A program made the position numbers and the translations under genes. The notes beneath the pieces were generated by a model. That model saw nothing but the letters and a program-made list of their open reading frames with translations. It ran no database searches and was not told where the DNA came from. A DNA stretch of 64,000 bases, from positions 144,150,001 to 144,214,000 of the forward strand of contig OZ024742.1 in assembly GCA_964016885.1 (NCBI GenBank). Direction: 5' to 3'. How positions within the stretch are numbered: position 1 is the stretch's first letter; each line of letters opens with the position of its first letter. This document shows positions 6,851 to 61,805 of this stretch, piece after piece. The DNA comes from Eledone cirrhosa (taxonomy: Eukaryota).

Positions 6851-7094
6851 GATATAACAATATCCGTAGATATAAACAGGAAAACAGTGCTTAATCGAGA
6901 AGACAGCAGCAGAAATATTATATGTACTTATGTTCATACACAGAACAAAGACATGACCTGAGGGTTCAAGGCCCAAATTTGACTATACGTCCAGAAAACA
7001 AGAGGCATTAAAGCAGTGAACTTTCTTCAGGTCCTAATATCAGAAAGGTCACTATTATGATGCCTCTTTTTTTCTGGAGGTATGGTCAAATTTG
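6851..7094 (-). mobile_element. Fold-back cassette, Penelope-like pLTR remnant (family P1)
   Basis: Inverted arms ~6974-7026 / 7042-7094; the long arm runs on to a (TA)n; homologous to 15146-15467. Confidence 0.65.
6950..7033 (-). ncRNA. Degenerate type-I hammerhead ribozyme motif with extended stem II
   Basis: Minus strand: CTGAAGA-AAGTTC...GGCCTT-GAAC-CC TCA GG-TC; core GAAA is changed to GAAC and stem I pairs poorly. Confidence 0.45.
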
Positions 7095-7460
7095 AAGCAA
7101 TAAAGGAAGGAAGAGAGGAGAGGCATAGACTCTACACCCAAGGCTGGTGATTCGGCCATGTTCTGTAGACAGCATAGAAAAGTCATTGCTACAAAGAGTG
7201 ACCAGCAACACCCACCTCATGGGACTTCTTCCTCAGGTGGCTTTCCAATTATGACTTTCCAATTTTGCGGAGGAAATCGATAGTATGGGAACCAAGGAAA
7301 CCAGAGATCTCGACGGTGACCAATATGAAAAGTTAGATTGCCCTCAAATTACACCACGTGGTCCTTGAAAATGTAATATGCTTGCTTTATGCATAGACAC
7401 ACTATGGAGAAAAAAGGTGAAATAACCATGACTGGAATTTCTTTAATCACAAGTCTGCTG

Positions 7461-8565
7461 GAACAAAGTTGACTCAGACTCAGAAGCTCCCGCGTCTTGA
7501 GACGCATGAGGCAATCATAATGTTCCATCGCGTTCGGTCAGCAGCCAGTTGTACAGCGTCCCGCCATTGTCTGTTTGTCGCTCGCAGGTCCCTCTCAACT
7601 GTCTGGCGCCAGTTTATATTGGGTCGCCCTCTCCATCTGCTTCCCTGCGGGCTCCATTTAAGTACTTGGTTCGCCAGTCTCTCCGGAGGAAGTTTCAAAG
7701 CGTGTCCAAACCAGCCCAGGCGTCGCTTGCAGATGGCAGAAGAGACCAGCTGCTGGTTGGTGCGGTTCCTGACTTCCTGGTTTGTTACATGGTCACTCCA
7801 TTTAATCCCCAGGATCTTTCGCAGACACCTGGAATCGAATGCGTCCAACTTCTTCTCTTGGCTGGTCTTAAGGTGCCATGTTTCACTTCCGTACAAGAGT
7901 GAAGACAGCACGTTGCTGTTGTAGAATCTCATCTTTGTTTTGAGGGTGAACTTCCTGCTCCTCCAGATCTTGACAAGCTGGTTAAATGCTGCTGAAGCCT
8001 TTCCCATTCTACATTGCAATTCACTGTCCATGGTGCCCTCATTGTTAATGGAGCTTCCTAGGTAGGTGAAGTTGTCCACTATCTCCACCTCCCCCTGTTC
8101 AATGAAGACACTGGTTGGTGGTGGGTGTGTCTCAGATAACATGCTTTTGGTCTTCTTGGCACTGATATTGAGACCTAAGCTTCCTGCTTCGACATTGATA
8201 TTGTTCACAATGATTTGCAGGTCAGCTGTGCTCTCTGCAAGTGCAGCAATATCGTCCGCAAAGTTCAGGTCAGACAACTTTTGCTCTCCCACCCAAGATA
8301 TACCCTGGTCTTTAGACGCTCTTCTTAGTACCCAGTCAATGGCTATGGCAAAGAGAATTGGAGAGAGCGAGCAACCTTGACGCACGCCAGTAACCACCTC
8401 AAACCAGTCACTGTAACCATCCTCTGTCCGTATGCAACACTTGGAGTTTGCGTAAATCTGTTTGATTACAGAAATGACTTTCTGGGGCAGACCATACTCA
8501 TGCATGATGCTCCAGAGTGACGGTCGATGAATGCTATCGAATGCTTTGGAGAAATCGATGAAGCT
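7461..8565 (-). mobile_element. 5'-truncated RTE-clade LINE with target-site duplication
   Basis: RT-bearing ORF; short (TGAGTC)n tail; TSD GAACAAAGTTGACT at 7461-7474 and 8630-8643. Confidence 0.9.
7480..8565 (-). pseudogene. Reverse transcriptase plus C-terminal region of a LINE ORF (N-terminally truncated, frame uninterrupted for ~360 aa)
   Basis: Motifs FIDFSKAFDSIHR, GVRQGCSLSPILF, LNFADD, FTYLGS, LLYGSETW, RRLGWFGH, GRPNINW. Confidence 0.92.
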
Positions 8566-10206
8566 GAAAGTCTCGAACAAAGTTCGGAAAGAGGATTGTA
8601 TATATATTGCTGTAGAAGGCGAAAGTTTCGAACAAAGTTGACTTAAGAGTAAACTAAAGCAACAATAGAAAACAATCTTTCCTCACCCTGTCTTACTATT
8701 TCTCTACTTCTATACCCACCTCTATACCCACATACACATACACACACACGTACATACACTAGATATGTCTAACAAGAACCACTCCTCTGTATCTGTCAGG
8801 TTTAAATAAAAGATGACTTACAACAATGGAAGTATTTTTTTGGAGAAGTTTATTACAAAGCTTTGGTTAATCTACCCCTCATGGGGATATGTGAATATGT
8901 ATTTGTGTGTGTGAATATATATGTGTGTGTGCATGTGTGTTTATCTAAGGAGTGAGAGCAATGGGAATATATTTGGTTGTTGTTATAATGACTTTCATTT
9001 CATGTATGAATATGAATAAATGAGAGCAATAGGAATGCATATATATAATTATTTTGCTGTTATGACTGTGTTTATGTGTATGAATAAATGAAAGTGATAG
9101 GATTGTATATATATTGCTGTAATAACTATAGGAGTGTGTGTGTAAGAGAGAGCATATAAATGGGTGTGGAATGAATGTTGTATAGATCCTAATAAAAAAT
9201 AAAAAATTGTTTTGGTGTTAAGTAAAACAAATCCTTTTTTGGTAGCACCAAAAACAAATGTTTGTAAAACCTATCAAATGGAAATACCAATGAGTGTACA
9301 TACATACAATTAGAGACTACTATTAGAACTTTATTATTAATAATTTTATCTTTATCAGTGGTTTAATACACTCTTTTGTACCTGACACAAAGGCAAAGTT
9401 TGTAAATGACCTCAATGCCTGATTGGTACTGCATACCCAGACTGTTTGAGTAATCCACAGAATATGGGAACATATATAAGTGAGATGTACCTGAGAGATC
9501 AGTAGCTCTGCTTGAGTACTGACTAAGTCTGTGATAATCCAATTACTAGCAAGGAGAATAGACTTTAAATGATGATAATGAAGAAGATGATGATAATATG
9601 ATGATGATGAACGGATAAAAAACAAAGTTGACTGTAGTGGTATCTGAACACAAAACATAGACATACCCAAGCCACACGTCGCACTCAGAGCTAGTGTCTG
9701 GGTATGGACGTGCAGTGCACCCATATTTTCCCAAATAAAATAATGTCAACTTACAGTTTAGTAAGCTGATACACCTAGTTTTTGACAATTATATATATAT
9801 ATATGATGGCTGCCCCCTCATTATTGAGTATGGTCATTGCACGATATAACATTATTAATCATTATCAATTAATGCTATCGTGCATTGCCTGCGCATGAAG
9901 ATTTTTTTAAAAGTGAGGAAGGACTGTGCACTGAACCAATCCCACTCTCTGAGCGACAGTAGCTATAACTCAAAAAGAAGAAAAGATCAACATCATCATC
10001 ATCGGTATCTACTGAGCCGCAGGTTTTATGTCAGAGTTATCCCAGTTTCCTGAGTTGCCTTCTCCTAGAAGAATGCCCTGACAAAGGCTAGGGTCCTTCA
10101 CACCCAGTGGTTTAACCGTGCGATCGGGTATCCAGCCTGATTATTTTTCATTTCTTCCTCTTCACACTCTCTATCTTTCTATTTCATCTTTTATTTCTCT
10201 TTTTAA

Positions 10207-10240
10207 CTTCTGATGAAGGGATTGTGTCCGAAATGTTAAG
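10207..10240 (+). ncRNA. Minimal type-I hammerhead motif
   Basis: CTT-CTGATGA-AGGGA TTGTG TCC-GAAA-TG-TT-AAG; GAAATGTT is plausibly CpG-decayed palindromic GAAACGTT; related degenerate copy at 25193-25262. Confidence 0.6.
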
Positions 10241-60710: not shown

Positions 60711-60915
60711 AGTGAACAAAAGCCAAGTATAGGGGTTTATGTGTGTATGTGTATATATATATATATATATATATGTATCTGTGTGTGTGTATATATATAT
60801 TTATATATATCTGTGTGTGTGTATCTATCTATATATATATATATATATATATTATATATATACTTATAGCTAGCATGGAAGATAGACGTTAAACGATGAT
60901 GATGATGATATATGA

Positions 60916-61249
60916 TCATCATCATCATTTTACGTCCGTTTTTCCCTGCTTGCAAGGGTAGGACGGGAACTAATTGTGGCTTGATTTCTACAGCTGGATG
61001 CCCTTCCTAACACCAACCTCATTTACAGTGTGGGCTGGGTGCTTTTTTGCTGTGGCCCCTCCACGACTACTTTGCAGTGGAATGATAGAGGTGCCAGTCC
61101 TATCATCTCATTTCTACAGCTGAGTAAACTGGAGCAATGTGAAATAAAGTGTCTTGCTCAAGGAAACAACACATCACCCGGTCTGAGAATTGAACTCACA
61201 ACCTTTTGATTGCAAGGTCGATGCTCTAACCACTAAGCCATGTGCCTCC
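60916..61249 (-). mobile_element. SINE family A, full length
   Basis: Near-identical to 14457-14794. Confidence 0.92.
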
Positions 61250-61266
61250 ATATGATATATATATAT

Positions 61267-61805
61267 GTAGATAAATCTACCAAGAGTTTACGGTAGTGTC
61301 CAATCCGTATGAAGAACTCAATGTATTCCGGATATCATGGAAAGAAGAAATGTAATGAAAAATCACTTTCGGTGAAAGATAAACGGTATACAGAGTCAAG
61401 ATAAAATATTAAACAAATAATGAATAAACAATTCCTTATATTAAACAAAAAAAGTTCATTATTTAACGATCGTTTCTAGGATATATATGTGTTAGAGTTG
61501 GCATGCATATTCAACAGATCTATGTACAAAATTATACAAAATTATACAAACTATCAAGATTAAATATACATACCAACACATATATACGCCGTCTTCAGAA
61601 ATAATTTCTGAAGACGGCGTATATATGTGTTGGTATGTATATTTAATCTTGATAGTTTGTATAATTTTGTATAATTTTGTACATAGATCTGTTGAATATG
61701 CATGCCAACTCTAACACATATATATCCTAGAAACGATCGTTAAATAATGAACTTTTTTTGTTTAATATAAGGAATTGTTTATTCATTATTTGTTTAATAT
61801 TTTAT
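61267..61805 (-). mobile_element. Fold-back cassette (family P5): 202-bp perfect palindrome arms plus ~135 bp tail
   Basis: 61401-61602 is the reverse complement of 61604-61805; 1-nt centre; (TA)n on both sides. Confidence 0.85.
61604..61745 (+). ncRNA. Type-I hammerhead motif with ~115-nt stem II (identical mirror on minus strand at 61461-61602)
   Basis: ATTT-CTGAAGA-cggcgTATATATGTGTTGG...CTAACACATATATAtccta-GAAA-CGATCG-TT-AAAT; palindromic stem III, GUU site. Confidence 0.68.

Follow-up and report, generated by a model that had tools for sequence, protein, structure and literature searches.

In a stretch of the Eledone cirrhosa genome (contig OZ024742.1 of assembly GCA_964016885.1, positions 144,150,001 to 144,214,000 of the forward strand; 64,000 nucleotides, hereafter the window, numbered from its first letter), we find short, mostly inverted cassettes that carry hammerhead ribozyme motifs and fall into seven families, A to G. 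Judged from their sequence, the cassettes are the pseudo-long-terminal-repeat (pLTR) ends of Penelope-like elements (PLEs) and no new class of element. We propose that they are ends of Hydra-clade PLEs that would be written into (TA)n by the element's own enzyme, which would copy a capped sense RNA from an internal start to its 5' end. We give this proposal a probability of about two in three. All seven families are dispersed repeats in the host genome, which has 3.0 Gb and is rich in microsatellites.

The preliminary description of the window had suggested a Penelope parentage, and it had noted that no PLE open reading frame (ORF) lies within the window. A tblastn search confirmed the latter. 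The parentage holds for five of the seven families (A, C, E, F and G), which connect elsewhere in the genome to ORFs for a reverse transcriptase (RT) and a GIY-YIG endonuclease, in an unbroken run from the frame to the hammerhead. The G arm in the window is identical to the pLTR repeat that flanks an intact frame of 807 amino acids in tandem units of 6.9 kb, and the F arm continues into a frame related to that of G; pLTRs in tandem or partial tandem with an ORF were thus found for both G and F. Families E, C and A are linked to related nuclease ends through a shared 3' untranslated region (UTR). Families B and D were not linked, as flanks of 1.5 kb around 30 B and 24 D loci revealed no ORF. 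Many flanks hold PLE nuclease ends with a CX2-5CxxC linker of the Neptune type (e.g. L079:2303-3241, L085:2323-3213 and L102:194-751), and the pLTRs of these might be families B or D.

The single G ORF contains, in this order, RT motifs, CxCx5C, GIY-YIG, CxxC and CxH; RWR and DKT are present and GxKF is absent. Its RT motifs and C-terminal GIY-YIG motifs are conserved in 61 aligned proteins, among which 52 have an RWK-type motif, 57 have DKT and none has GxKF/Y. The F frame likewise has an RWK-type motif and DKT and lacks GxKF/Y. Within the GIY-YIG domain of the 61 proteins, no conserved cysteines separate the GIY part from the YIG part, and a conserved CCHH is likewise absent; CxxC and CxH sit by the nuclease E and N in the G-type frame. 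By these motifs, the family G ORF is assigned to the Hydra clade. A first assignment to the Neptune clade was dropped when the motif check showed Hydra-clade features. Pfam and PDB sequence searches with the ORF gave no useful match, and its closest named protein relative is from the octopod Argonauta hians. The sampled arms have their 3' ends in (TA)n, consistent with Hydra-clade targeting. The Hydra clade, its hammerheads and its (TA)n targeting have been described before (PMC8557442), and the supplement of that study includes Hydra-1_Obim of Octopus bimaculoides, with a hammerhead and a (TA)n preference. The 6.9-kb unit of G, with a repeat-rich 3' UTR of about 4 kb, exceeds the typical size of less than 3 kb for this clade, which is not a strict limit. 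In one G element (L056:900-3900), the ~4-kb 3' UTR is composed of microsatellite-like sequence.

To locate the ends of the arms, we sampled copies by a pattern from their 3' half, which leaves the 5' end unselected. Because automated end-mapping under- or over-extended in subfamily variants and in AT-rich DNA, we determined the ends of families C, E, F and A by manual reading. Counted from the cleavage site, the 3' ends of the G arms lie at +64 or +201 and are followed by (TA)n. Among 80 G arms, 27 extend more than 200 nt upstream and 53 are short; the short ones begin at most 12 nt before the core (28), within the ribozyme (12) or further out (13). Nine of these last 13 lie at -13 to -22, where the alignment mostly continues into TA or junction filler. 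The commonest G start is an A seven bases ahead of the core. In family C, 16 of 30 arms begin at an edge ~66 nt before the core, with 8 long arms and 6 that begin inside; in family F, 16 of 30 begin at an edge 121 nt out, with 8 long and 6 other arms. For E, the edge lies 5 nt out and holds 10 of 30 arms, the others being long (9), scattered upstream (7) or inside (4). At least about eight A arms start 7-20 nt out. The edge base in C, E, F and G is an A preceded by two pyrimidines, as in a putative initiator. Across the genome, 2,919 breaks of family E fall just before the edge A, compared to 860 when the position is shifted outward by one base and 1,081 when it is shifted inward by one. The 5' edges of B and D lie near a common type of motif, presumably similar to a YY1 site; the B edge is ~105-125 nt ahead of the core. 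An initiator-type internal promoter is contained in the pLTR of Drosophila Penelope (PMC2377424), and a pLTR start site with an initiator is also known from a Chlamys element.

The edge is further marked by an extra G. By hand count, G occurs in 58 of the first 100 listed E breaks at the edge, compared to 19 and 21 of 100 at the neighbouring bases (Fisher p ~1e-10). Reading 30 E loci gave 19 G junctions; none of these is a substitution in a long copy, and 14 are not explained by the partner arm. Of the arms with the extra G, 6 are tailed and 13 tail-less, and L374/L375 as well as L389 have it on both arms. The E arms with the G share no diagnostic variant over 78 nt. At about 20 neighbouring ends of family G, we observed no untemplated G. 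In L1 elements, an extra G marks capped 5' ends (PMC11702581). The sharp starts and the extra G together suggest that the cassettes were likely copied from capped sense RNA. A literature search, by which subscription papers on PLEs were mostly not covered, returned no paper describing PLE copies with a cap-derived G or with 5' edges at fixed sites, and priority is thus uncertain.

The head-to-head pairs suggest how the two arms may have been primed. Exactly one arm is tailed in 68 of 75 pairs (G 23/24, E 17/18, F 10/10, C 16/19 and A 2/4), in a sample that includes some loci from fold-back queries. This one-tail pattern would be expected if each target strand were primed once, from two sites on the RNA, and it argues against self-priming on antisense RNA (PMC3846280). 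For another PLE, two RT start sites have been demonstrated in vitro (PMC11167929); the two fixed 3' ends of G, at +64 and +201, resemble them, which we count in favour of the mechanism proposed here.

Arms that run into the ORF behave differently at the 5' edge. The genome contains 307 G and 59 F pLTRs on the ORF side. Of 23 distinct ORF-running G arms (30 loci), 18 continue past the edge, none stops at it and the other 5 break further in. Similarly, 13 of 30 such F arms pass the edge, 16 break further in, one more shows upstream sequence after a deletion, and none stops at the edge. The absence of edge stops has p ~1-2e-4 in both families. A single capped RNA as template for all copies was rejected, as 0/23 G and 0/30 F full-length arms end at the edge. 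Since ORF-bearing arms never start there, the long copies would come from a template without that capped end. Cleaved linear RNA as the main template was rejected as well, as the 5' ends form no clear spike at the cleavage site; at position 17 there are 557 changes, compared to 20 and 27 at the neighbouring positions, but this is mostly a subfamily variant (18/20 loci have intact ribozymes). The template of the long copies is most likely a circle formed after hammerhead cleavage, otherwise a multimer. Such a circle, after double cleavage, has been proposed for PLEs (PMC4209133). The same study expects a single ribozyme with a palindromic stem to cleave poorly, which may account for the survival of capped RNAs with one ribozyme as templates.

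These observations can be combined into a mechanism of five steps. An initiator in the pLTR would start a capped transcript 5-121 nt ahead of the hammerhead core, and the endonuclease would cleave both strands of (TA)n. RT would begin at two fixed sites on the RNA downstream of the ribozyme, each target strand using one of them, giving one tailed and one tail-less arm. Each complementary DNA (cDNA) would run off at the cap, often with an added G, and the ends would be joined head to head. The long ORF-bearing copies would come from a template without a capped end, most likely the post-cleavage circle and otherwise a multimer. A wider version, which we put forward only tentatively, is that PLEs use two templates at once. 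Capped, uncleaved RNA with a single ribozyme would be copied on both target strands and give about a hundred thousand short cassettes, while a unit-length circle made by the hammerhead would be copied past unit length into partial tandems able to transpose again. If true, the PLE hammerhead would have a function, the strand copied would be established as sense, and a single scheme would account for pLTRs, tails and head-to-head repeats.

Several points weigh against the capped-RNA proposal. Start site and cap are both deduced from genomic DNA, and the arms of a pair are not independent counts. In family E, 7 of 30 arms show the scattered upstream breaks, and the E plus arm in the window itself begins 29 nt upstream of the putative start; E, the family with the most exact matches, also has an altered core (U4A). 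Five of the 19 E junctions with G could be templated by the partner arm, and a single G-flanked master copy could be the source of the extra G. The signal is weaker in family G, where the extra G occurs in 22/100 raw junctions and in ~6-8 of ~15 informative ones. No ORF link was found for families B and D. The missing spike at the cleavage site also counts here, and tandem masters could yield linear multimers in place of the putative circle.

The short cassettes might alternatively arise by random 5' truncation, in which case self-priming on an antisense template would produce the head-to-head arms, and solo pLTRs would be what deletion or recombination leaves behind (PMC3846280). We regard this as unlikely: palindromic overlaps at many junctions and scattered breaks in every family would be expected from it, but the edges are sharp and family-specific, and the extra G belongs to the sense strand and occurs on tailed and tail-less arms alike, in one pair on both arms. 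The arms of that double-G pair are separated by a single nucleotide, too little for a priming hairpin. A similarly low, marginally higher probability goes to the idea that the short cassettes are non-autonomous elements (solo pLTRs or retrozyme monomers) that propagate themselves from one or a few short masters, one of them flanked by G, with the PLE providing only the enzyme. A solo pLTR does contain a promoter and a ribozyme together with RT start sites, long copies of B and D were not seen, and a PLE origin of retrozymes has been proposed (bioRxiv 2026.07.22.740005). Moreover, a T precedes the G in 14 of the 19 E junctions; it precedes 7 of 11 non-G junctions too, however, and the more distant flanks differ. 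G subfamilies are found as long and short copies alike, and the capped-template part of our proposal would hold in any case.

Much less probable is that RT halts when the cDNA folds on itself after stem I has been copied, such that ribozyme structure and not an RNA end sets the edge. The G and E edges do fall in the 5' strand of stem I, but those of C, F and A lie ~66, 121 and ~20 nt before the core, ORF-side arms read through the identical stem without stopping, and the extra G would be unexplained. Chance motifs or assembly palindromes are the least credible source, and the copy number together with the ORF linkage already refutes them. The bare core word does occur no more often than by chance and the G arms are near-perfect inverted copies, as such an artefact would predict; yet there are hundreds to thousands of dispersed copies with zero matches in reversed-pattern controls, and the arms are diverged, with one-sided tails and unique junctions. 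We retain copying from capped sense RNA as the best explanation.

The cassettes carry real hammerhead motifs by sequence, though several copies in the window are decayed. A type I core with three stems is present across copies of A, B, C, D, F and G; core counts across family copies are hand counts, and in genomic copies of A the core is present in 24/34 arms and GAAA in 24/34. Family E has stems I-III but an A at core position 4, fixed in 78 arms. The preliminary description had seen about seven unrelated families. We also find seven, and C, F and G are unlike in sequence; however, these three have a common architecture, in which stem III is a six-base palindrome and the fourth stem II pair is mismatched. 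Across all collected loci, motifs with a long stem II form 26 clusters, of which 18 have the fourth pair open (C.C in 12), whereas the third pair is closed in 26, the fifth in 25 and the sixth in 26; the descriptor required 6 of 8 pairs without fixing which. Both-side changes occur in 15 of 21 pairs among 16 sequences, a count that is partly circular as the sequences were chosen for their fold. Stem II of family G has 115 nt (z = -6). Single-strand folding gave a hammerhead for the F plus arm only and the long stem II for G, and the other five did not differ from shuffles. A U4C core and a U.U at the base of stem II are mentioned as natural in PMC3088659, the main text of which does not mention U4A. 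Three natural ribozyme variants would be worth assaying, namely the U4A core, the C.C class and the stem II of 115 nt.

The bare CUGANGA word is not enriched in the window (29 compared to 27.5 +/- 5.1 in shuffles), whereas the full hammerhead descriptor is far above 200 block shuffles (4 arms, where the shuffles averaged 0.07 and never exceeded 1). The best 150 of 357 Rfam matches were only to hairpins and microsatellites, with no hammerhead among them. Exact pattern matches in the genome number 25,513 for E, 8,072 for F, 6,716 for G, 905 for C and 197 for A; the reversed patterns gave zero matches each. In 20 stretches of 10 kb at round coordinates (200 kb), we found ~18 arms, all within 7 of the 20 stretches, 12 of them strong by covariance model and 6 more by BLAST (families B, E and G). 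The resulting density, roughly one arm in every 11 kb, is similar in order of magnitude to the one per 7-8 kb first reported for the window, and corresponds to on the order of 10^5 arms in 3 Gb, many of them decayed.

Within the window, the preliminary description had listed nine hammerhead sites. Four are intact or nearly so (10210+, 16397-, 37779+ and 61598-/61608+), and the remaining five are altered. The tails and (TA)n flanks were borne out, and self-BLAST recovered the inverted duplications of both A copies, C, E, F and G; that of D is deduced from genomic copies. The view of an independent population of fold-back cassettes did not hold: the junction differs from one fold-back to the next, from which it follows that hairpins arise during insertion and are not themselves what moves. 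Family A has two copies of 76% identity. The first (6851..7094) has a tailed minus-strand arm and a short inverted remnant; its core is at 7030 on the minus strand, not at 6950 as listed, and GAAA is mutated. The second (15147..15467) is head-to-head with a ~55-nt tail on the minus arm; both cores are decayed, and at the listed site 15347 the plus-arm core lies at 15350 with a mutated GAAA. Family B is represented by a single plus-strand arm (10140..10310) with a minimal hammerhead, core 10210, and an extra base preceding stem II, and by a plus-strand copy (25150..25290) that was correctly described as broken at 25193. The C cassette (16197..16480, minus strand) has an intact motif with core 16397, a ~95-nt tail and an inverted stub at 16444-16480. 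The D cassette (18325..18490) is an old fold-back with U.U at the base of stem II; the core listed at 18408 is present at 18412 (+), but the decayed stem I has only 2 bp.

The remaining three cassettes have arms on both strands. That of E (19397..19866) is head-to-head, with a plus arm that begins at 19675 and bears a ~90-nt tail; its core at 19709, listed under 19704 as CUGANGA, is the U4A form, and position 19704 is the putative start site and the first base of stem I. The F pair (37393..37990), also head-to-head, has its centre at ~37654 at the putative start site, a plus arm with core 37779 and a ~90-nt tail, and a minus core at 37493 with G12 mutated. In the F plus arm (37774-37850, +), a short duplication yields an 8-bp stem III, and the lowest-energy fold is a complete monomeric hammerhead (z -4.6). 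The G pair (61264..61805) is young, with the 115-nt stem II and cores at 61598 (minus) and 61608 (plus). Its minus arm has a 137-nt tail (61264-61400) and begins at the putative start site (61605, minus strand), and its plus arm begins 3 nt inside it.

Further repeats were noted. Beside E, 19895-19950 is a remnant of an eighth hammerhead family (minus-strand core 19904), whose plus-strand stem III resembles bystander motifs in loci L005, L012, L066 and L166. A small hairpin-forming family, in which no hammerhead core was seen, adjoins the second A cassette, C and F (15498-15613, 16138-16191 and 37328-37397). A family of ~156 nt resembling short interspersed nuclear elements, with what we take to be a B-box, occurs often as inverted pairs (27803-28323 and 27173-27313; also loci L149, L313 and L316-L320); it abuts the G edge in 7 loci and also flanks A and C arms. 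Another dispersed family of ~290 nt has 6-9 copies, some with a 49-nt tandem (6066-6356, 14507-14798, 18741-19180, 36906-37197, 50072-50321 and 60963-61253), and self-BLAST revealed additional inverted pairs at 12153-13081, 55936-56378 and 51560-51993. The broken frames at L060:6140-8770 presumably resemble a Helitron Rep-helicase.

When comparing the cassettes to known systems, we find that the elements are already of a known kind and that the junction pattern may be the new part, with uncertain priority. They share with Hydra-clade PLEs (PMC8557442) a C-terminal GIY-YIG, the RWK/R, DKT, CxCx5C, CxxC and CxH motifs, (TA)n targets, a hammerhead near the 3' end, an inverted truncated copy and a one-sided tail. 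They differ in the unit of 6.9 kb (compared to less than 3 kb), in tails of 55-137 nt (compared to 30-40), in a stem II of up to 115 nt and in having many families at high copy number; C.C at the fourth stem II pair and the U4A core are in neither case found in the rows of the Hydra supplement that we compared. Like the minimal hammerheads of PLEs (PMC4209133) and animal retrozymes (PMC7229834; bioRxiv 2026.07.22.740005), the motifs are of type I with a palindromic stem III, opposite-strand pairs lie 100-700 bp apart, and a circular intermediate is proposed. In contrast to those, the copies here are linked to their own ORFs and are solo or head-to-head without tandem arrays, such that the window copies lack the tandem hammerhead units that define a non-LTR retrozyme. 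Hammerhead counts elsewhere reach ~9,000 in Xenopus (PMC4209133) and up to 120,000 in axolotl, and our rough 10^5 arms would be at or above these published counts. The main text of an Octopus vulgaris repeat annotation includes neither hammerheads nor the Hydra clade.

With regard to the mechanism, the closest parallel is Anolis Poseidon in vitro (PMC11167929), where two internal RT start sites bound the tail, both target strands are extended and uncleaved RNA is the template, as proposed here. Poseidon belongs to another clade, and the 5' end, a cap G and two template classes are not treated in the parts of that paper available for comparison. The extra G at the 5' junction is shared with full-length L1 that carry a cap-derived G (PMC11702581); here, however, it is found on products of internal initiation of 100-300 nt and is absent from ORF-bearing copies. 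The replication of PLEs, the strand copied and the role of the hammerhead have been stated as open (PMC8557442, PMC3846280), and the capped-RNA reading would make these questions testable. The young families, with thousands of near-identical junctions, provide predicted start sites at base level, two priming sites and a cap signature, and the intact G ORF is available for in-vitro work.

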